A DNA stretch of 39,342 nucleotides from a virus (lineage: Duplodnaviria; Caudoviricetes). Below, piece after piece: positions 3,123 through 39,342 of the stretch. Both the position numbers and the translations under genes were made by a program. The stretch covers positions 1 through 39,342 of the IMG/VR virus record IMGVR_UViG_3300037483_000053. One strand, given 5' to 3'. Numbering within the stretch: the stretch's first letter is position 1; every line of letters begins with the position of its first letter. The notes below the pieces were generated by a model that was not told the DNA's origin, did not search any database, and saw nothing but the letters and a program-made list of their open reading frames with translations.

Positions 3123-3177
3123 TAGTCCCGACGTTAGCGGAAAGCTAACAAATTAAACCTAAACTGGAGAAATGATC

Positions 3178-3981
3178 ATGGCAAAGTACCTCATTCAAGA
3201 CAACTTCCGTGTTCTGCGTAAGGGTGAATTTGTTCAGGCTGCTGAAGAAGCCGGAGAGTTCATCTATGACACTGAAACTGCTGATTCACACTCGATGGCA
3301 ACGCTGAGTGAAATCGCAAAGGCCAATGGCGTGGAAGTCCACTCCAAGGCCAAAAAGGTTGATCTGATCATCCAGATCAATGAAAAACTGTCCACCCTCA
3401 ATGTACCGGAGCAAAACAAAATGACTGATACCCAAGTTGTAGAAAAAATCATTGCTGATGGCGTTACCGCTGGTAAGTCTGATGATGACATGCTGCTGGA
3501 AATTGTGAATTCTGGCGTCAGCTTCAAGAATGCCACGAAGGTGTTCAAGATGGTGATGGAGGAGAAGGGATACCGCGTCAGCGCAAAGGAGCGTAAGGAG
3601 GAAGCAGCAAAGATTCTGGCTGATGGCAACTTCGACCTGACCACTGCGGATGGCGTGAACACCGCCGTTGATGCGCTGGTTGTTGGCGTTGCTGACACCA
3701 ATGAAAAGAGCGCCATTGGCTTCATCCGCTCGTATGCAAAGGCAAATGAAATCTCCCTGCCCAAGAAGGAGAAGGGCAGTGCTGGTCGTGTTGGCGGCGG
3801 CGGCATGTTTGCCAAGTTGGGTGAATGGATGTTGGAAAACCGCGACGCGACGGTTGAAGACATCAAGAGGGCCACAATGACCATCAAGTCTGACATGAAT
3901 GAGAAGCAGGCAGTCAAGTATGCCAGCATCGCTCATGACATGCTGAAATTCGCCCGCAAGTTCCACGAGACTGCTGCCTAA
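3178..3981 (+). CDS. probably highly expressed hypothetical protein with a possible Rho-N/HeH/SAP-like nucleic-acid-binding motif
   Basis: Own promoter, RBS GGAGA at 3166-3170 and terminator; many C-ending codons; motif SMATLSEIAKANGVEVHSKAKKVDLIIQI. Confidence 0.75.
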   Translation: MAKYLIQDNFRVLRKGEFVQAAEEAGEFIYDTETADSHSMATLSEIAKANGVEVHSKAKKVDLIIQINEKLSTLNVPEQNKMTDTQVVEKIIADGVTAGKSDDDMLLEIVNSGVSFKNATKVFKMVMEEKGYRVSAKERKEEAAKILADGNFDLTTADGVNTAVDALVVGVADTNEKSAIGFIRSYAKANEISLPKKEKGSAGRVGGGGMFAKLGEWMLENRDATVEDIKRATMTIKSDMNEKQAVKYASIAHDMLKFARKFHETAA

Positions 3982-4010: not shown

Positions 4011-4042
4011 GCCCCTAGCCAATCGGCTAGGGGCTTTTATTT
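4011..4042 (+). terminator. Rho-independent terminator
   Basis: GCCCCTAGCC-AATC-GGCTAGGGGC followed by TTTTATTT. Confidence 0.9.
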
Positions 4043-4347: not shown

Positions 4348-5265
4348 ATGAAGATTTTAGGAGCTGGGTTGGCTGGTTGTATTGCAGCAGCCATGAATCA
4401 AAATGCAACAATCATCGAATCAAGCAACAAAGGCAATCAGCAAAAGCACAAAGCTGTGTTGAGATTCCGCTCTCCACATATAGGAGAGGCAGTTGGAATA
4501 CCATTCAAAGAAGTAAAAGTGTACAAGGGTATATGGCACCGTGGCGCGCCAGCAACTCTTTCTCCACGGCATATAATCCTATACTCCAGAAAGGTGGCTG
4601 ATGTTGCAGCATGCAGATCAATTACTAATTTGGAGCCAGTTAATCGTTGGGTTGCTCCTGATGACTTTCATGAGCAATTGCTTGATATGTGTGATGGGCG
4701 CATTGAATATGGAACTCATTGCGATGCAGATGTCATAAATAGTCTGAAGGACGAACCAATTATAAGCACTATCCCAATAAATGTAATTGCAAACATATTG
4801 GGCAAGAGTATTGCTGTAAGTTGCAAATCAAGTGAAATATACGTTACACAATTGTCTGTTGAAGATTGTAATGTATATATGACAAATTATTACACTAGCC
4901 CTGATGTATTGCCATACAGAGCGTCAATAACAGGCAATAAAGTAATAATAGAAAGCTGTTGGCAAATTACCAAAGAGTGCATCAATCATGTAATTGACAG
5001 CTTTGGAATAAAAGGCATGTCAATTGATGTTATTGTTGATAATCACATACAGAGAAATGGCAAGATAGTTCCAATTGATGAAGATGCACGTAAACAGTTC
5101 TTAGTTTATGCAACAATTAAGCATGGCATATATAGCCTTGGTAGATTTGCAACATGGAGGAATATAGTACTGGATGATGTATACACAGATATTTTGAAAA
5201 TCAAAGCGATGATTAACAAAAGTCATTATGATCAACTGAAGATGGAGTACAACTATGAAAGTTAA
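4348..5265 (+). CDS. FAD/NAD(P)-binding oxidoreductase-fold protein, distantly resembling the UDP-galactopyranose mutase / amine oxidase group
   Basis: N-terminal Rossmann motif ILGAGLAG..AA....IIE; ISTIP; C-terminal flavin motif IYSLGRFATWR...DDV. Confidence 0.75.
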   Translation: MKILGAGLAGCIAAAMNQNATIIESSNKGNQQKHKAVLRFRSPHIGEAVGIPFKEVKVYKGIWHRGAPATLSPRHIILYSRKVADVAACRSITNLEPVNRWVAPDDFHEQLLDMCDGRIEYGTHCDADVINSLKDEPIISTIPINVIANILGKSIAVSCKSSEIYVTQLSVEDCNVYMTNYYTSPDVLPYRASITGNKVIIESCWQITKECINHVIDSFGIKGMSIDVIVDNHIQRNGKIVPIDEDARKQFLVYATIKHGIYSLGRFATWRNIVLDDVYTDILKIKAMINKSHYDQLKMEYNYES

Positions 5266-5998
5266 GCTGATTGATTATCAAACGAATGCACTTGAAATCC
5301 TTCTGTACACAAAGAATACCAGACTCACATCTGGTGAATCAATTCATGACATTATGAATTGGCCAGAAGAAAAGAAACTTGAGCATTTGGATTACATGCG
5401 TAATACCATCTCAAGTTCATGGGAATTTGCAGACTATACCTTTGAAATTTCAGAAGTGAGTCGCTCATTCACTCATCAGTTGGTCCGCACACGCACAGCC
5501 AGTTTCGCACAGCAAGCTCAGCGAGTTGTTGATGTACGCGATTCAGGCTATGTTGCTCAAACTGATCACCCAATCTTTCATGATGCAGTAAAACACAGCT
5601 TTGAAGAGTATGGAAAGTTGGTTGATGATGGAGTGCCAGTTCAAGAGGCTCGTGGGGTGCTGCCTACTTGCACTAATACCAACATAATTTTCAAGGCAAA
5701 TCTGCGCACGCTGTCTCATATGGCTGAAATGCGTATGTGCAAACGTGCAGAAGGAGAATATCAAAAGGTATTTGCAGAGATTCGCCGTGAGGTGTTGAAA
5801 GTACATCCATGGGCAGAGAAATTCATTCAAGTGTATTGCGTCAAGACTGGCCTCTGTGCATTCCCAAATTATGCAGAGTGCCCAGTGAAGCCATTTGTAC
5901 TTGCTCCAACTAAGGAGCAGATTGCAGCAATTGAATCTGCATGGAATGATTGTTACCACGTTGCAAATCCAGTTGCAAAAGATGGGAGAACAATGTAA
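5255..5998 (+). CDS. thyX: flavin-dependent thymidylate synthase (ThyX) homologue with non-canonical motif
   Basis: SSWEF..YTFEISEVSRSFTHQLVRTRTASFAQQAQR, EARGVLP, NLRTL, R.C.RAEGE. Confidence 0.85.
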   Translation: MKVKLIDYQTNALEILLYTKNTRLTSGESIHDIMNWPEEKKLEHLDYMRNTISSSWEFADYTFEISEVSRSFTHQLVRTRTASFAQQAQRVVDVRDSGYVAQTDHPIFHDAVKHSFEEYGKLVDDGVPVQEARGVLPTCTNTNIIFKANLRTLSHMAEMRMCKRAEGEYQKVFAEIRREVLKVHPWAEKFIQVYCVKTGLCAFPNYAECPVKPFVLAPTKEQIAAIESAWNDCYHVANPVAKDGRTM

Positions 5999-6489
5999 TG
6001 ACAATTCAAGAATTATTCAAAATTGGGATGAAGCGTGACATCCCATTGTTAATGGAGGATGCCAAGGGTGGCATCATCTTAAATTTAGGCGCAGGAAACC
6101 AATCCATTGATGGAGCTACTGCATTCGATTGGCCAGATTGGGATGCAGAACATGGCTTTATACCATGCCCAGACAATTCAGTATCTCAAATTCACGCTTA
6201 TCATTTCTTTGAACATCTGCGTGACCCTAGAATAATATTGGCAGAGTGCCAGCGAGTACTCAAAAAATCAGGCCACATAAACATTGTGGTGCCATATTAC
6301 AAATCGAATATGGCATTCCAGGATTTGGATCACAAATCATTCTTTACTGAAGATACATGGAAGAATCTTTTTTCAAAAGAGTATTACTCAAAAGGGAAGA
6401 TTGATTGGGAATTCAAGATTGGATTAAACATCATCATTGGCATCAATGAACGCAATTTGTGCTTAATGACTCAACTTATTAAGGAGTAA
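5998..6489 (+). CDS. class I SAM-dependent methyltransferase (Methyltransf_11-like)
   Basis: LNLGAG, PDNSV...HFFEHL, E..RVLK..G.I.IVVP, D.DHK. True start is the TAATG overlap with thyX. Confidence 0.85.
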   Translation: MTIQELFKIGMKRDIPLLMEDAKGGIILNLGAGNQSIDGATAFDWPDWDAEHGFIPCPDNSVSQIHAYHFFEHLRDPRIILAECQRVLKKSGHINIVVPYYKSNMAFQDLDHKSFFTEDTWKNLFSKEYYSKGKIDWEFKIGLNIIIGINERNLCLMTQLIKE

Positions 6490-6492
6490 GGA

Positions 6493-6810
6493 ATGGCCAA
6501 GAAGCAGAGCAAGTGTTTTGTTGCAGTTGAGCTTGAAAGTGCTGCAAATACTTATGAAGAGCGCAATGCAATTTATGGCGATACATACAAGCGCCATGGG
6601 CATGTAATGTCTGCTCTTTTCCCCGATGGCATTGCAGTTGACAATCCACATGACATGAATCGACTTGGTGTCTTGAATATGATTGTTGGAAAGTTGACGA
6701 GGTATGCAACAAACTTTGATAATGGTGGCCACAAAGATAGTCTGCATGATTTGTCTGTGTATGCAGCAATGCTGAATGAACTTGATCACGAGGTTGATCA
6801 TGAAGGGTGA
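6493..6810 (+). CDS. all-alpha nucleotide pyrophosphatase-like protein (nucleotide-modification-associated domain 1 / DUF6378-like)
   Basis: ER...YGD, KLTRY, H.DSLHDLSVYAAML motifs; AAGGAG RBS. Confidence 0.7.
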   Translation: MAKKQSKCFVAVELESAANTYEERNAIYGDTYKRHGHVMSALFPDGIAVDNPHDMNRLGVLNMIVGKLTRYATNFDNGGHKDSLHDLSVYAAMLNELDHEVDHEG

Positions 6811-7348
6811 TTTTGTTGTAATTGATACTGAGACAACTGGGCTTCTAAAGCCAAGCCCAGTTGATAAGAATATGCAACCTTTCATCACAGAGTTTTATGG
6901 CATTCGCATAAACAAGAACTGGGAAGTTGTTGGTGAATTTGAAACATTCATTAAGCCTCCTATGCCAATTCCTGATGAGGTTGTCAAGATAACTGGCATC
7001 ACTGATGAAATGGTTGCAAATGCACCTACATTCATTGAAGTTTTTGATGACATTGTTGAGCTCTTTCATGGAGCAAGACGAATGGTTGCACACAATTTAT
7101 CATTTGATGCAGGAGTTTTAAGGCAGGAACTTGAGCGCCATGACTTGGCTTTCAAGTTCCCTTGGCCACCAGAATGGCATTGCACAGTTGAACTTAGCAA
7201 ATCAATCAGAGACAAGGCATTGAAGTTGAGAGATTTGCATGAGATTGCAACTGGCACTCCACATGAAGATGGTGCACATCGTGCTAAAAATGATGTCATG
7301 GCTCTAGTTCGCTGTTACAAATGGCTTTGTGATAAGGGATTTGCATAA
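6800..7348 (+). CDS. dnaQ: DEDDh 3'-5' exonuclease (Pol III epsilon-like)
   Basis: IDTETTG, VAHNLSFD, AHRAKNDV; GAGGT RBS before ATG at 6800. Confidence 0.92.
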   Translation: MKGDFVVIDTETTGLLKPSPVDKNMQPFITEFYGIRINKNWEVVGEFETFIKPPMPIPDEVVKITGITDEMVANAPTFIEVFDDIVELFHGARRMVAHNLSFDAGVLRQELERHDLAFKFPWPPEWHCTVELSKSIRDKALKLRDLHEIATGTPHEDGAHRAKNDVMALVRCYKWLCDKGFA

Positions 7349-10165
7349 ATGAAAGAAATCATCAACCTGGCGCTGAGAACTGAATACACCTTCAAAAAGG
7401 TGTATGGCTATGCAGAAGATATAGTGAAATATGGCAATGTAGCAGTTGGAATAGCAGATTCCAATAATACATTTGGTCATGTCACTCTTGAAAAAGAGTG
7501 CAAGAAAGCAGGCATAAAGCCAATCTTTGGCATCAGGTTGATGGTTGTCCGTGATGCAACTGAGAAAGGAAAAGCTCGTCACCACGGGCCAGAATACATT
7601 TTCATTGCAAAGAATCAGGATGGCTTGAAAGAAATATACAAGTTGGTCATGGCTGCATATGACCAATTTCACTTCTGGCCAAGAATTGATGTGCATGATG
7701 TCAAGAAGTTAAGCAGAAATGTTATTGTAATTGCAGAGAACTTCTTTGATGAGACTCGCATTGATTATATTGCGCTTAGTCCATCAACACCAAAGTTGAT
7801 TAAAGATTTTCCATTGCCAAAGGTTGCAATAATTAACAACTACTATCCAACTGCCTTTGACAAACCAATCTATGAATTGCTGTCTGATGGCGGGTTTATC
7901 CATACATATCCACAGCATATTATGACAACTGCAGAGTGGTATCGAATCTGCAAAGATGAAGAAGCAATAAACAACACTCATGTAATTGCAGATATGTGCG
8001 AGCACTTCACCATTCCAAAGGCACCAATGGTGAGGTACAATGGCATGATGAAAATTGAAGTTGCTATTAAGAATGGCGCAAAGAAAAGAGGCATTGATAT
8101 TGATTCAGAGCCATACAAGTCACGCATGGAGCGTGAATTGGATTTGATTAAGCAGAAGGATTTTGGTGACTATTTCCTTGTTGTTGCTGACATGATAAGA
8201 AAGGCTAAGGCAAAGGGAATATTGGTTGGGCCTTCTCGTGGCTCATCAGCAGGCTCACTTGTTTGCTATTTGCTTGGCATCACTGAAATTGACCCTTTGT
8301 CATTTGGATTGATTTTTGAGCGATTCATTGATATCAATCGTGCTGACCTACCTGATATTGACGTTGACTTCCCTGATAACAAGCGTCAAATTGTAATCAA
8401 GCAACTTGTCAATGACTATGGCGAAGAGAAAGTTGGTCATATTGCTACAATTGCTAAGCTGAAAGCAAAGAGCGCAATTGGTGCATTTGCTAAGTCTCTT
8501 GGCATACCTCCTTATGAGACAGAAGGAGTAAAAGACGCAATCATTGAGCGCAGTGGTGGTGATGCCCGTGCGGCGATGTGCATAATGGATACATTTGAGA
8601 CAACTGAAGTTGGTCAAGTATTTATTGAAAAGTTCCATGCTATGAAGCTTGTTGAAAGAGTTGAGAATCACTCTAGTCACGCAGGGGTTCACGCAGCTGG
8701 TATTATTGTTTGCAATGAACCATTGACTGATTTTGTTGGTCGCAATACTCGTGATGACATGGTAATGGTTGATAAGAAGGAGGCTGAATATCTCAATCTG
8801 TTGAAGATTGATGTGCTTGGACTTCGCACGCTGTCAATACTTCATGATTGTGCAAAATTGGCAGGACTTGACCCACAAATTTATTACACGCTGCCATTGG
8901 ATGATGGCGATGCATTCAAGCTGATAACTGATGGTAGGTGGTCAGGTATTTTTCAGTTTGAAGGCCAAGCTCTGCAGTTTGTAACAAGGCAAATCGGCGT
9001 ACATGAATTCAATGATATTGTAGCAATCACTGCACTAGCTCGTCCTGGTTCAATGAACTCAGGTGGCACAAACAAGTATATCAAATCAAAACTTGGTGAA
9101 GTAAAGCCTGTTTACTTTGATAAGATTCACGAAGACATAACTGGTGAAACTTTTGGTGTAACTGTATATCAGGAACAAATGATGAATATGGCCCGAGAAA
9201 TTGGCGCCATGAGTTGGGAAGATGTGTCTGATTTGCGTAAGGCTGCATCAAAATCACTTGGTGATGAGTTCTTTGCAAAGTACAAGGACAAGTTCATTGA
9301 AGGTGCAACAGCAGTAAATGGTTATACAAAAGAAAATGCAGAGGAAATGTGGTCAGACATTCAGCACTCTGGCTCTTGGATTTTCAACAAATCACATGCA
9401 GTAAGTTATGCTCTGATTTCATACTGGACTGCGTGGGCCAAGGCGCACTACCCACTTGAATTTGCAGCAGCAAACCTTAACAATGCAAAGGATGATGATT
9501 CTGCATTGAAGTTATTGCGTGATATGGTAATAAATGATGGCATTGAGTATGTAGCAATTGACCCTGATGAATCGAAAGAAAATTGGTCAATTGCAAATGG
9601 TAAGTTGATTGGCGGTTTGACAAGCATCAAGGGAATTGGTGCAAAAAAGGCAAAGGAAATTATAACAAGGCGTGATAATGGATTGCCTTATACTCCTGCA
9701 ATGGCAAAGACTTTGTTCAACCCAATTACAATGTTTTCCTCTCTATTCCCTTGCAAAGATAAATGGGGCAAACTATATGAAAGGCCAATTGATTTTGGGT
9801 TGATTGCACCTCCAAGCAACATTGCTGATGTTACAAGCGGAACTTGTGTTGTTATTGGTAAAGTTATTAGTCGTGATCTCCGTGACCGCAATGACTACCA
9901 ATCAATACAAAAACGAGGTGGCAAAAAAGTTGACAAGAATCAGTTTTATTTGAAATTCTATATTGAAGATGATACTGATTCCATCATGTGCATGATTTCC
10001 CCACAAGACTTCAATAAGTTGAATGGAAAGAGATTGGCAGAAACATTGAAGGAAGGTGAAACATACGTCATTGTTAAAGGTGAAATACGCAGTGACTGGC
10101 GAATGATAACTGTTAAAGAAATACTTGATTTGACTGAATGGGAGAAGAACAATGGTGGCATCTGA
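7349..10165 (+). CDS. dnaE: DNA polymerase III alpha subunit (family C)
   Basis: PHP N-terminus (LRTEYTF..GIAD), RGSSAGSLV, FERF, PDIDVDF, HAAG, LLKIDVLGL, FQFE, YQEQ, FNKSHA. Confidence 0.96.
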   Translation: MKEIINLALRTEYTFKKVYGYAEDIVKYGNVAVGIADSNNTFGHVTLEKECKKAGIKPIFGIRLMVVRDATEKGKARHHGPEYIFIAKNQDGLKEIYKLVMAAYDQFHFWPRIDVHDVKKLSRNVIVIAENFFDETRIDYIALSPSTPKLIKDFPLPKVAIINNYYPTAFDKPIYELLSDGGFIHTYPQHIMTTAEWYRICKDEEAINNTHVIADMCEHFTIPKAPMVRYNGMMKIEVAIKNGAKKRGIDIDSEPYKSRMERELDLIKQKDFGDYFLVVADMIRKAKAKGILVGPSRGSSAGSLVCYLLGITEIDPLSFGLIFERFIDINRADLPDIDVDFPDNKRQIVIKQLVNDYGEEKVGHIATIAKLKAKSAIGAFAKSLGIPPYETEGVKDAIIERSGGDARAAMCIMDTFETTEVGQVFIEKFHAMKLVERVENHSSHAGVHAAGIIVCNEPLTDFVGRNTRDDMVMVDKKEAEYLNLLKIDVLGLRTLSILHDCAKLAGLDPQIYYTLPLDDGDAFKLITDGRWSGIFQFEGQALQFVTRQIGVHEFNDIVAITALARPGSMNSGGTNKYIKSKLGEVKPVYFDKIHEDITGETFGVTVYQEQMMNMAREIGAMSWEDVSDLRKAASKSLGDEFFAKYKDKFIEGATAVNGYTKENAEEMWSDIQHSGSWIFNKSHAVSYALISYWTAWAKAHYPLEFAAANLNNAKDDDSALKLLRDMVINDGIEYVAIDPDESKENWSIANGKLIGGLTSIKGIGAKKAKEIITRRDNGLPYTPAMAKTLFNPITMFSSLFPCKDKWGKLYERPIDFGLIAPPSNIADVTSGTCVVIGKVISRDLRDRNDYQSIQKRGGKKVDKNQFYLKFYIEDDTDSIMCMISPQDFNKLNGKRLAETLKEGETYVIVKGEIRSDWRMITVKEILDLTEWEKNNGGI

Positions 10166-11252
10166 TGAATACTTGGACACTCTAATTGGCAAGCCATTAT
10201 TCAAGATGGACTCTCTTGGCGGCATCAGAACATGGAAAGTTGAAGTTGATTTTTTGAATTGCTATCTTGTAATTGAGCATGGAAAGGTAGGTGGCTCCAT
10301 ACAAGAAAAATATGAAGAAGTGGAAGAAGGAAAAGCAAGCCGCGATATATATGAACAAGTTGAGTCTCGCGCACGCTCACGGATTCGCAACAAGCTTGAC
10401 ATGGGCTATGTTGAAAGCATTGAATTAGCAAAGTTGCCAAAGCGCAATGTAATGGGCCTGCTGATGCCAATGCTTGCTCATAAGTCAGAGAATAATCTGC
10501 ACAAGATCAATTGGGGCAATGCATGGGCACAACGCAAGTACAATGGCCATCGGTGTCTAATAACAAATCAGAATGGCAAGATAATTGCATACTCAAGGAA
10601 AGGCAGAGAGATTGAGTCAATTGGTCACATAATTGATGAACTTTCTGGAATACCAGAAAACATCACACTTGATGGCGAATTGTATTGCCATGGAGTTGCT
10701 TTGCAAAAAATCGGAAGTTGGATAAAGCGCAAACAAGAAGATAGCAAAAAATTGAAGTATCACGTCTATGATATGGTATCAAGTGATGCATTTGAAGAAA
10801 GGCTATTTTTGTTAAGAGAAATAATTGATGAATTTGAGCATGTTGAGATTGTTCCAACGAGGCCAGTCAACCACATGGAAGATGTTATGGAATTCATGAA
10901 AATATTCCGTGGAGAAGGATATGAAGGATTGATGCTTCGCCATGGCAACTATGGCTATGAAGATGGTAAACGCTCTTACAGCCTTTTGAAGTTTAAGGAG
11001 TGGCATGACATCGAGGCAGTTGTTGTTGATATTACTGAATCAAAGGATGGCTGGGCAATACTTCGATGTAAGATGGAAAATGGCAAAGAGTTCTCTGTGT
11101 CTGCACCAGGCACTATGCAAGAACGCACAGAGTTGTTGCAAAACAAAGATGAATTCATTGGATTCTCTGTGAATGTTAAATTTGCAGAGTTGACTAAAGA
11201 TGGAATTCCATTCCATCCGGTTGCAACTGCTTGGAGAGAGGAAGGGGAATAA
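10152..11252 (+). CDS. ATP-dependent DNA ligase
   Basis: PMLA, motif I KYNGHR, LDGELY, YHVYD, GYEGLMLR, LLKFK, T.DGIP.HP. Confidence 0.93.
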   Translation: MVASDEYLDTLIGKPLFKMDSLGGIRTWKVEVDFLNCYLVIEHGKVGGSIQEKYEEVEEGKASRDIYEQVESRARSRIRNKLDMGYVESIELAKLPKRNVMGLLMPMLAHKSENNLHKINWGNAWAQRKYNGHRCLITNQNGKIIAYSRKGREIESIGHIIDELSGIPENITLDGELYCHGVALQKIGSWIKRKQEDSKKLKYHVYDMVSSDAFEERLFLLREIIDEFEHVEIVPTRPVNHMEDVMEFMKIFRGEGYEGLMLRHGNYGYEDGKRSYSLLKFKEWHDIEAVVVDITESKDGWAILRCKMENGKEFSVSAPGTMQERTELLQNKDEFIGFSVNVKFAELTKDGIPFHPVATAWREEGE

Positions 11253-11364: not shown

Positions 11365-11835
11365 ATGAATGTAATCAAGTTCAGCAGAGTTAATAAGAAT
11401 GACGAGAAAAAGTTGGTTTTCACTTCTCCTGCAACAGCAGGATCAGCTGGATTTGATTTAACTTGCCATAGCATCAAAGATGACCGCTATATGGATTGGG
11501 ATGTATCAAGCAGAAAGATTGCACTACATGGTAGTGTAACATTTGGAACGGGATGGTCAGTGGCCATTCCACACGGATTTGTTGGCTTGATTGTGCCAAG
11601 ATCAAGCGCGCATAAAAGCAATGTGAAGTTGGCAAATGATACTGGTGTAATCGATTCTGATTATCGTGGTGAGATTCTTTTGAAGGTTGAGTCAAAAGGA
11701 GAAGTTGGTCTCGTTGAAATGGGTAAGCCATATTTTCAGATGGTTGTTGTGCCTTGTTTGACTGCTTGTGAAGAAGTTGATTCGCTTGATGAAACTGTCC
11801 GTGGCAAAGGAGGCTTTGGGTCTACAAATGAGTAA
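11365..11835 (+). CDS. dut: trimeric dUTPase
   Basis: SAGFDL, PRSS, GVIDSDYRGEI, Q, RGKGGFGST. Confidence 0.96.
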   Translation: MNVIKFSRVNKNDEKKLVFTSPATAGSAGFDLTCHSIKDDRYMDWDVSSRKIALHGSVTFGTGWSVAIPHGFVGLIVPRSSAHKSNVKLANDTGVIDSDYRGEILLKVESKGEVGLVEMGKPYFQMVVVPCLTACEEVDSLDETVRGKGGFGSTNE

Positions 11836-33203: not shown

Positions 33204-33509
33204 TTACACCTCCTCACCACGTATATTTGCATTCCTTGCAGCAATGCGCAATTTCAATCTGATAATTTTCCGTGCGACGTGTGTCAAGTAACTCGCTTCA
33301 CAATTCAAATCAATAATCAACTGCCTTATCATGATTGACACATCAGCAAGTTCTTCTGCTACCTTTGACACATTGCAGCGATTCCTGCGCAAGTGTTGAA
33401 TTGCTTGAATCAATTCAGCACACTCTTCAATTGCCATATCAAGGTTGAATTCACCACCCCATATTTTGCTGGTTTCTTTCAGAGCAGAATCATACTTATC
33501 ACTGATCAT
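33204..33509 (-). CDS. MazG-like nucleotide pyrophosphohydrolase
   Basis: IEECAELIQA...VAEELADV.IM. Confidence 0.85.
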   Translation of the reverse strand: MISDKYDSALKETSKIWGGEFNLDMAIEECAELIQAIQHLRRNRCNVSKVAEELADVSIMIRQLIIDLNCEASYLTHVARKIIRLKLRIAARNANIRGEEV

Positions 33510-38827: not shown

Positions 38828-38974
38828 ATGATGTCAACTCTTATTAAAAACATAATCAACATAAATGATGAAGGTGTTTCTTTTGAATTGACTGAGGCGG
38901 CTGCATTAAACGGTCATTTAAAAGCAAGGCATTGGTTTTGTCAGAACATAGAGGAGTTATTAGATGGAAAATAA
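38828..38974 (+). CDS. 48-aa hypothetical protein
   Basis: AAGGAG RBS; overlaps the next start. Confidence 0.45.
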   Translation: MMSTLIKNIININDEGVSFELTEAAALNGHLKARHWFCQNIEELLDGK

Positions 38975-39342
38975 AACTGAACAACTTATCAATGGTGTAT
39001 CAGTAAATAAGCTGAAGAAATGGCGTGAAATGAGTGATCAACTCAAGTCAATCAAAGAAGAAGAAATGCAGTTGAGGAAAGAGATAATCAATGAACTTGG
39101 TGTTGCTCTTCGCACTCCATTCAAGATCAAGAATGATGACATCAACATCAAGGCAAAACGCTCTGTTGAAATGAAGGTTGATGATAAAGATTCTCTCCGT
39201 GATGATTATGAAGGTATGCCTCCTGAAATTCAAGCTTGCTTCCCTATCAGCTATGGATTCTCAAAGACTGCATACAACTCTCTGGATGCTGAAGGTAAGT
39301 CAACTGTTCATGAGTATGTAATTGAGAAGGAAGGTGCTCCTA
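38964..39342 (+). CDS. replication-module hypothetical protein, runs off the window end (not in ORF track)
   Basis: GAGGAG RBS; open frame MENKTEQ...W......L...KEEEM.LRKEI...K.AY..L....K....E....KEGAP. Confidence 0.7.
   Translation, partial: MENKTEQLINGVSVNKLKKWREMSDQLKSIKEEEMQLRKEIINELGVALRTPFKIKNDDINIKAKRSVEMKVDDKDSLRDDYEGMPPEIQACFPISYGFSKTAYNSLDAEGKSTVHEYVIEKEGAP

Follow-up and report, generated by a model that had tools for sequence, protein, structure and literature searches.

What is made by the closely packed genes that lead into the replicative polymerase of the phage contig IMGVR_UViG_3300037483_000053? The window, meaning the whole 39,342-base stretch analyzed here, belongs to a siphovirus-like phage (head, tail, and lysis genes by PHROGs). 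Six genes follow one another on its plus strand, encoding a flavoprotein of 305 amino acids (aa) with a predicted UDP-galactopyranose mutase (UGM)-like fold (4348 to 5265), a variant ThyX of 247 aa (5255 to 5998, overlapping the flavoprotein gene by 11 nt), a small class I S-adenosylmethionine (SAM) methyltransferase of 163 aa (5998 to 6489, in stop/start overlap with the ThyX gene), an all-helical DUF6378-like protein of 105 aa (6493 to 6810, after a gap of 3 nt), a DnaQ-type proofreading exonuclease (6800 to 7348, overlapping by 11 nt), and a DnaE-type replicative polymerase (7349 to 10165, abutting dnaQ). We consider it likely that this block is a mobile phage cassette making a TG-specific, sugar-alcohol-bearing thymidine, to which the methyltransferase adds two O-methyl groups. 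The window presents the pathway as a single compact six-gene block that includes the methyltransferase.

The product is suggested by the Pbunaviruses F8 and 14-1. Yee et al. (bioRxiv 10.1101/2025.03.31.646159) describe thymidine derivatives with an apparent mass of 362 U in F8 and 390 U in 14-1, measured on a triple quadrupole, which replace about one quarter of T, at the motif TG. The 362 form is read there as an erythrose/threose sugar alcohol (tetritol) derivative and the 390 form as a circularized aldopentose derivative. The available text of that preprint names no biosynthetic gene ("thymidylate" has 0 occurrences), and no gene assignment is found in the passages of PMC13307970, PMC12904381, PMC12390725, PMC11990801, PMC12908700, PMC13326640, and PMC13697223, or elsewhere in the literature searched, the coverage of which stops short of subscription journals, including the journal version of the END paper (PMID 42362811).

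When 212 stop-to-stop open reading frames of the window were compared with F8, matches fell only over the flavoprotein, ThyX, the DUF6378-like protein, DnaQ, and DnaE, and the comparison with 14-1 gave the same five plus the methyltransferase and nothing else. The five genes correspond, in the same order and at 35 to 49% identity, to gp065, gp059, gp057, gp056, and gp055 of F8 and to gp66, gp60, gp58, gp57, and gp56 of 14-1. The window differs in that its block is compact, lies in an unrelated siphovirus of about 40 kb, and contains the methyltransferase. Its DUF6378-like domain also stands alone, whereas the Pbunavirus gp57 carries a HAD part as well; no window open reading frame matches the HAD part of F8 gp57, the contig ends being incomplete. 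T before G makes up 27.2% of T in F8 and 27.7% in 14-1, close to the modified quarter, and the F8 genome offers sites to each of the ten enzymes tested; modification at TG is therefore probably complete. We hold it very probable that the cassette makes the Pbunavirus modification. A reading made earlier from the sequence alone (the sequence-only reading) had pointed to a similar neighborhood in PB1-like phages, where the cassette does recur, and had proposed a different route to a modified pyrimidine. The cassette-bearing relatives F8 and 14-1 indeed carry a modified thymidine, and for both of them the mass of this product and the TG motif have already been published.

The gene neighborhood is widespread. 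Among the best 80 of 479 viral loci, picked by the flavoprotein profile alone, ThyX is present in 75, DnaE in 68, DnaQ in 67, a DUF6378-like domain in 57, and a HAD phosphatase or fusion partner in at least 45. Because the loci were chosen by the flavoprotein only and its partners recur, the clustering is not due to chance. Of the five loci that lack ThyX, four break off within 2 kb, and the fifth (L052) continues for 3.5 kb without it. The flavoprotein family counts 2287 relatives, with 362 phage records, and is nearly exclusive to phages; a prokaryotic genome collection yielded only 6 loci, all on metagenome-assembled genome (MAG) contigs of 3 to 59 kb. Among near-full-length relatives, DnaE is found in 356 phage records versus 360 for the flavoprotein. 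The coupling to the phage polymerase that the sequence-only reading proposed is thus common but not obligatory: the 207-kb Rhizobium phage RHph_Y65 (L003, 9956 to 15971) encodes the flavoprotein, a variant ThyX, and a HAD-DUF6378 protein together with PolA and no DnaE, making DnaE the usual rather than a required partner. A relative of Y65, TM30, has been grouped among SP-15-like polymerases (PMC12686479). In the Vibrio phage PVA7 record (L002), the flavoprotein, helicase, DnaE, and ligase genes are all split, probably by sequencing frameshifts. The pathway is real, widespread, and uncharacterized, and is a variant of thymidylate-synthase-based DNA hypermodification.

The flavoprotein matches phrog_4828 (E 5e-77), a family of unknown function, and has neither a Pfam match at E 0.1, GLF included, nor an NCBIfam match. 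Its structure model (pLDDT 92) resembles UGM (Glf) as the best fold by two programs. Foldseek ranks 1 to 28 as listed are all UGM (E 1e-9), and the comparison with UGM 4dsg (48,161 chains, VIA) gives a Z score of 20.0 and a root mean square deviation (rmsd) of 3.6 over 289 aligned residues, the second-best fold family being the protoporphyrinogen oxidases (Z 16.9). An N-terminal dinucleotide-binding glycine motif is shared as well. The protein is unlike UGM in its identity of 10 to 16%, its length (305 aa versus 360 to 510), and its TM-scores of 0.5 to 0.64. A search of PDB sequences with its profile found nothing, with no UGM at E 1, and because a sequence-level match to solved UGMs is lacking we describe it as resembling UGM without classing it as one. 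In UGM, the sugar becomes covalently attached to flavin N5, and PMC8316439 names this enzyme the other N5-sugar flavoenzyme. For the window protein, we predict that a sugar is activated or reduced by way of flavin N5.

The second protein is a ThyX by family (Pfam Thy1, E 2e-37; 99.5 versus a TIGR02170 equivalog cut-off of 87.9) and by the fold of its model (Z 18.6, rmsd 2.2, 185 residues aligned). Residues were placed by alignment to 4gtf in Thermotoga maritima (TM0449) numbering, across 80 sequences comprising the window, F8, 14-1, Y65, PVA7, and 75 loci. The window protein has the TM0449 fold, and its dUMP/FAD arginines, at positions matching T. maritima 78, 80, 90, 147, and 174, are invariant in 80/80, while Ile52 stands for His53, Thr79 for His79 of the RHR motif, Ala88 for Ser88, and Val91 for Tyr91. 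His53 of ThyX stacks on folate; it is Ile or Leu throughout the 80 sequences, and ThyX structures with H53A and H53D exist. His79 is kept in 5/80 and Ser88 in 37/80, and in 75/80 Val, Thr, or Ala occupies position 91. Tyr91 and Ser88 have been called strictly conserved in ThyX, which accepts free formaldehyde through a flavin N5 carbinolamine (PMC8316439). Unlike TM0449, the window protein has an added family-specific motif, Thr19-Lys20-x-Thr22-Arg23, with Lys20 and Arg23 invariant, and a Cys-rich C-terminal extension. With the dUMP/FAD arginines kept and His53, His79, Ser88, and Tyr91 replaced, we infer that the nucleotide site is retained and the side facing the one-carbon donor remodeled. 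A ThyX tree of 30 rows was set aside for its unresolved backbone and long outgroup.

The methyltransferase (Methyltransf_11, E 1.5e-7; phrog_6636, E 2e-55) belongs with small-molecule enzymes: its Pfam matches are the small-molecule families Methyltransf_11/12/23/25, its nearest PDB matches are small-molecule methyltransferases, and a weak match points to the sugar methyltransferase MftM (E 0.004). No match was found to DNA C5, N6, or N4 methylase families. With 14-1 gp13 it shares 49% identity, whereas the whole of F8, PB1, E217, and Ss1 gave no match. In 14-1, 88 of the 90 annotated genes have an F8 counterpart, the exceptions being gp13, a clean 500-bp insertion relative to F8 about 40 kb from the cassette, and gp88, an anti-END inhibitor (bioRxiv 10.1101/2025.03.31.646159). 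Twelve of the 80 loci carry the methyltransferase, in every case between the flavoprotein and DnaE, as does one of the 6 MAG contigs within its cassette; in Pseudomonas it occurs in 58 records versus 292 for a flavoprotein-sized set, by count rather than paired per record. The difference between 390 and 362 is 28, corresponding either to two CH2 (390.164, C16H26N2O9) or to CO (390.127, C15H22N2O10, the pentoside), which differ by 0.036 and are not resolved by unit-mass instruments. As the flavoprotein and ThyX are nearly identical between F8 and 14-1 (97% and 94%), two methylations are the simplest account of the 28 Da. We think that the methyltransferase probably explains the heavier base of 14-1. 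Our prediction is that it places two O-methyl groups on the sugar-alcohol side chain and that the DNA of this phage contains the 390-Da form.

The fourth protein has a sub-threshold DUF6378 match (E 0.0025) and a match to phrog_4889 (E 3e-15), and is 39% identical to the C terminus of F8 gp57, the Pbunavirus "polynucleotide kinase". Its atlas neighbors are DUF6378/DUF1599 and HAD fusions, and Lys67, Arg70, Asp82, and Asp86 are invariant in the family. No MazG family match was obtained, and its profile found no credible relative in the PDB. Where the gene is absent, DUF3310 is present in the same slot. We take DUF3310 to include the T7 gp1.7 nucleotide kinase, and because of this shared slot the 105-aa protein may be a nucleotide kinase; it may equally be a nucleoside triphosphate pyrophosphatase. 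A MazG-type pyrophosphohydrolase is encoded separately, outside the block (33204 to 33509, minus strand).

The sequence-only reading agrees in part with these results. Its tight gene run into dnaQ, dnaE, and ligase is found on the plus strand as it described, its flavoprotein, variant ThyX, and SAM methyltransferase calls hold with the UGM-like model, the replaced residues 53, 79, 88, and 91, and the family matches above, and the further decoration it allowed the methyltransferase is probable from the gene content and masses of 14-1 and F8. Its "pyrophosphatase" label is only tentative, the DUF6378 match being sub-threshold and the protein without a solved relative. The hallmarks of described routes that it did not find were likewise not seen in family scans: among 33 window proteins there was no glycosyltransferase, ThyA-type enzyme, TET/JBP, PurZ, deazaguanine enzyme, 5-hydroxymethyluracil (5-hmU) DNA kinase, or aGPT-PPlase, proteins without annotation remaining, and among 36 F8 nonstructural proteins no glycosyltransferase, TET/JBP, hmU kinase, or aGPT-PPlase was recognized by Pfam.

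A pathway can be proposed from these parts. The mutase-fold flavoprotein would activate or ring-open a pentose (phosphate) via flavin N5, and the folate-site-altered ThyX, using the pentose instead of formaldehyde, would attach it at C5 of dUMP and then reduce it, giving 5-(2,3,4,5-tetrahydroxypentyl)-dUMP (nucleoside C14H22N2O9, 362.13). By mass arithmetic, thymidine (242) less formaldehyde (30) plus pentose (150) is 362. The DUF6378-like protein would handle phosphates, in most relatives with a HAD phosphatase. DnaE and DnaQ would incorporate the modified nucleotide at TG and read through the bulky template strand, with host dTTP filling the remaining T positions, and the methyltransferase would convert 362 to C16H26N2O9 (390.16). 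We regard the C-linked pentitol chemistry, an alkylation of C5 by pentose, as plausible at slightly under even confidence.

This chemistry would place the F8 base in a series. Bacillus phage SP-15 contains C-linked 5-(4',5'-dihydroxypentyl)uracil (330.14 as the nucleoside; PMC5977210), and linkers of 88 Da in Carin-5 and 104 Da in YerA41 have been described on thymidine (PMC12686479), so that T+88 (SP-15, Carin-5), T+104 (YerA41), and T+120 (F8) rise in steps of one oxygen, 16 Da. SP-15 gp130 belongs, with its counterparts in Carin-5 (45%) and YerA41 (28%), to a second family of divergent ThyX proteins about 390 to 410 aa long (L117, L118, and L119), which is a candidate for the pentyl-linker step; the SP-15 gene adjoins one for a short-chain dehydrogenase/reductase (SDR), and the window-family ThyX profile finds gp130 at E 0.003. 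SP-15, YerA41, and Carin-5 were considered as flavoprotein carriers and rejected (0/3).

Two routes could bring the base to TG. A nucleotide-pool route needs a context-selecting polymerase or proofreader, and a DNA-level route needs a flavoprotein that acts on DNA. The tight coupling to DnaQ and DnaE and the precedent of SP-15, whose pentyl-uracil is built before DNA synthesis and placed nonrandomly, never adjacent in DNA (PMC5977210), and for which the 1978 papers reportedly give a ribose label and a triphosphate intermediate, lead us to favor the pool route with about even confidence, and we see it as an evenly balanced question whether the polymerase sets the TG context. Indirect support for a role of TG comes from the window itself: across 18 genes, the share of T at four-fold third positions is 64% before G versus 19 to 35% before other bases, and the C-independent TG codon index (log2 odds) of the window, 2.30, is the highest of all sequences tested. 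The median is 0.95 in the 68 of 80 cassette loci that were long enough and -0.68 in 11 controls (-1.53 to 1.29), which are mostly of lower GC and were judged cassette-free on the sequenced locus only. As a general marker, TG enrichment was rejected as unreliable, with F8 and 14-1 low and controls few; the low values of these two phages make the codon signature of the window suggestive only. The window dinucleotides show a strong TG/CA excess (rho 1.43) and a CG deficit (0.58). Extreme CG depletion (rho 0.06 to 0.14) is seen in the cassette contigs L060, L051, L043, L040, L018, and L055 and also in some noncassette controls.

Several points weigh against the cassette as we read it. TG specificity is the weak point of the explanation; to our knowledge, no polymerase has such context-selective insertion, and the TG index is low in F8 (0.25) and 14-1 (0.22), with one noncassette control at 1.29. 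This phage is known from sequence alone, the base masses coming from F8 and 14-1. The link between the methyltransferase and the 28 Da rests on two phages with measured masses, of which F8 has five short unique stretches and between which gp71 (57%) and gp12 (73%) are divergent. The window has no HAD of the kind present in at least 45/80 loci, and about two-thirds of the 36 F8 nonstructural proteins are without a Pfam match, so that further enzymes could be hidden among them. SP-15, YerA41, and Carin-5 lack the flavoprotein and have a ThyX of another subfamily, the YerA41 value of 346 is a fragment m/z, and the text of PMC12686479 is inconsistent on which linker belongs to which phage. The fragment spectra of the preprint led its authors to a pentoside for 390 (bioRxiv 10.1101/2025.03.31.646159).

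That published assignment may hold as it stands, with a pentoside for 390, a tetritol built by other genes or from host donors for 362, and a methyltransferase that acts elsewhere, for example on a virion glycan or protein. The fragmentation reading of the preprint and the 40 kb between gp13 and the 14-1 cassette speak for it, while the near identity of the flavoprotein (97%) and ThyX (94%) in F8 and 14-1, the lack of a recognized glycosyltransferase in the window or F8, and the fact that the window and 12 other loci have the methyltransferase within the cassette make it unlikely in our view. We give similarly little weight to an ether in which the same cassette and methyltransferase act but ThyX delivers one carbon, the exocyclic methylene-dUMP being trapped by a tetritol (phosphate) that the flavoprotein makes from erythrose-4-phosphate. 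The resulting 5-hydroxymethyl-dU O-tetritol is also C14H22N2O9, an isomer of the pentitol with the same mass, and fits the preprint's wording "erythrose/threose sugar alcohol derivative" (bioRxiv 10.1101/2025.03.31.646159), and the loss of Tyr91 and Ser88 would reflect a changed handling of the carbinolamine; yet His53 is lost in all 80 sequences, and an ether falls outside the 88/104/120 series, whose SP-15 member is C-linked.

The TG specificity would be explained without a context-selective polymerase if the modification were completed after replication. ThyX would then make a modified uracil nucleotide, and the flavoprotein would act on DNA, for example exchanging thymine at TG through a flavin N5-deoxyribosyl intermediate, with the polymerase only copying a bulky template and the DUF6378-like protein keeping the modified triphosphate out of the pool. 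UGM chemistry is a substitution at the anomeric carbon, the core is found with DnaE or PolA, and the flavoprotein family has a median pI of 8.2 and many invariant Lys and Arg residues, all of which suit this scheme. We know of no precedent for a flavin DNA transglycosylase, however, the pI of the window flavoprotein is only 7.6, and the pentyl-uracil of SP-15 is made before DNA synthesis and placed nonrandomly (PMC5977210), which leaves the scheme decidedly improbable. Highly improbable, too, is an ordinary replication and nucleotide-supply operon in which the ThyX product is dTMP and unrecognized genes elsewhere are responsible for the Pbunavirus modification. ThyX does clear the TIGR02170 cut-off, and a ThyX beside a polymerase is often seen in phages, but Tyr91 and Ser88, reported as important (PMC8316439), are lost, the pairing with a sugar-mutase-fold protein recurs in 75/80 loci, and the accessory slot holds sulfo-, carbamoyl-, and methyltransferases and SDRs.

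Between ThyX and DnaE, the cassette has a slot whose genes are exchanged from locus to locus, namely, SDRs (18 loci), a VOC-like protein (15 loci; our own label, as Pfam gives no match), radical SAM (SPASM) proteins (7 loci), sulfotransferases (4 loci), carbamoyltransferases (4 loci), an FkbM methyltransferase (1 locus), and an unclassified protein (3 loci). The plug-in sulfo-, carbamoyl-, and FkbM methyltransferases are hydroxyl-decorating enzymes. Slot genes lie, for instance, at 4886 to 5701 in L008, 11514 to 13337 in L064, 11098 to 12000 in L023, 8039 to 8830 in L027, and 10567 to 11858 in L018.

Actinophages have a parallel block of a small oxidoreductase (126 records), HAD, DnaE, and the same ThyX subfamily (7/8 loci, E of about 1e-35), with an SDR in 4/8 and the same methyltransferase in 3/8. 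Hosts include Mycobacterium, Gordonia, Streptomyces, and Microbacterium (L089, 7535 to 15723; L090, 7805 to 17645; L093 to L097). The oxidoreductase shares only three collinear motifs with the flavoprotein (HMM E 0.17 to 0.35; profile-profile probability 30.5, E 5e-4), a weak link that we regard as no more than probable; in a viral fold search on this link, the third match was a 257-aa protein.

Around the block, a terminator-like hairpin with a T run (4011 to 4034, plus strand; consensus match only) marks the upstream limit, and a promoter scan gave 7 sites versus 11.2 in shuffles. Immediately upstream of the block lies a gene for a 269-aa protein (3172 to 3981), higher in GC and weakly matching Rho_N/HeH, with homologues at the equivalent position in 14/80 loci. 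DnaQ, its start taken as 6800 where the program's list begins it at 6776, has all three Exo motifs, and DnaE has intact catalytic aspartate motifs, both with strong family matches. On the same strand follow an ATP-dependent DNA ligase (10152 to 11252, overlapping dnaE by 14 nt), with no counterpart in F8 or 14-1 at E 1e-4, and a dUTPase (11365 to 11835, by family match), which would supply dUMP. The window terminase is nearest to those of Kagunavirus/Jersey-like phages (about 52%). Positions 1 to 247 are part of a Cas4-domain exonuclease gene and 38964 to 39342 an open frame, and with both ends intragenic, a few kilobases of the genome are probably absent from the window.

Pbunaviruses are widely used therapeutic phages, and their modified thymidine governs sensitivity to restriction enzymes and END nucleases. 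The comparison made here points to one candidate gene for the mass difference between F8 and 14-1, a reading that also challenges the published structural assignment. The origin of the dihydroxypentyl-uracil of SP-15 has reportedly been unexplained since 1972, and the pentose chemistry, if true, would give the ThyX fold a reaction not seen before and open a way into this 50-year-old problem. A TG-selective polymerase or base-exchange enzyme, if real, would be a tool for site-specific DNA labeling. Speculatively, one pentose-using ThyX chemistry with a sugar-mutase-fold flavoprotein could explain the Pbunavirus bases, the SP-15 base, and the YerA41 and Carin-5 linkers. Plug-in enzymes for methyl, sulfo, and carbamoyl transfer and for deoxygenation would then vary a C5-pentitol handle across about 490 cultured-phage records, and a replicase or flavin base-exchange enzyme would place it only at TG.

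Among known systems, the post-replicative 5-hydroxymethyldeoxyuridine pathways of M6, ViI, PaMx11, and PhiW-14 (PMC8989533) likewise combine context-specific, partial thymidine hypermodification with plug-in tailoring enzymes; they differ in their ThyA-type hydroxymethylase, 5-hmU DNA kinase, and aGPT-PPlase, which were not found in the window or F8. SP-15, Carin-5, and YerA41 resemble the F8 system in the partial replacement of T by a base with a polyol chain and in having a divergent ThyX each, whereas their type of system uses a PolA-UDG polymerase where the window has DnaE, and adds further phosphorylation and glycosylation. The SP-15-type phages resemble the cassette in how they work and are not members of its family.

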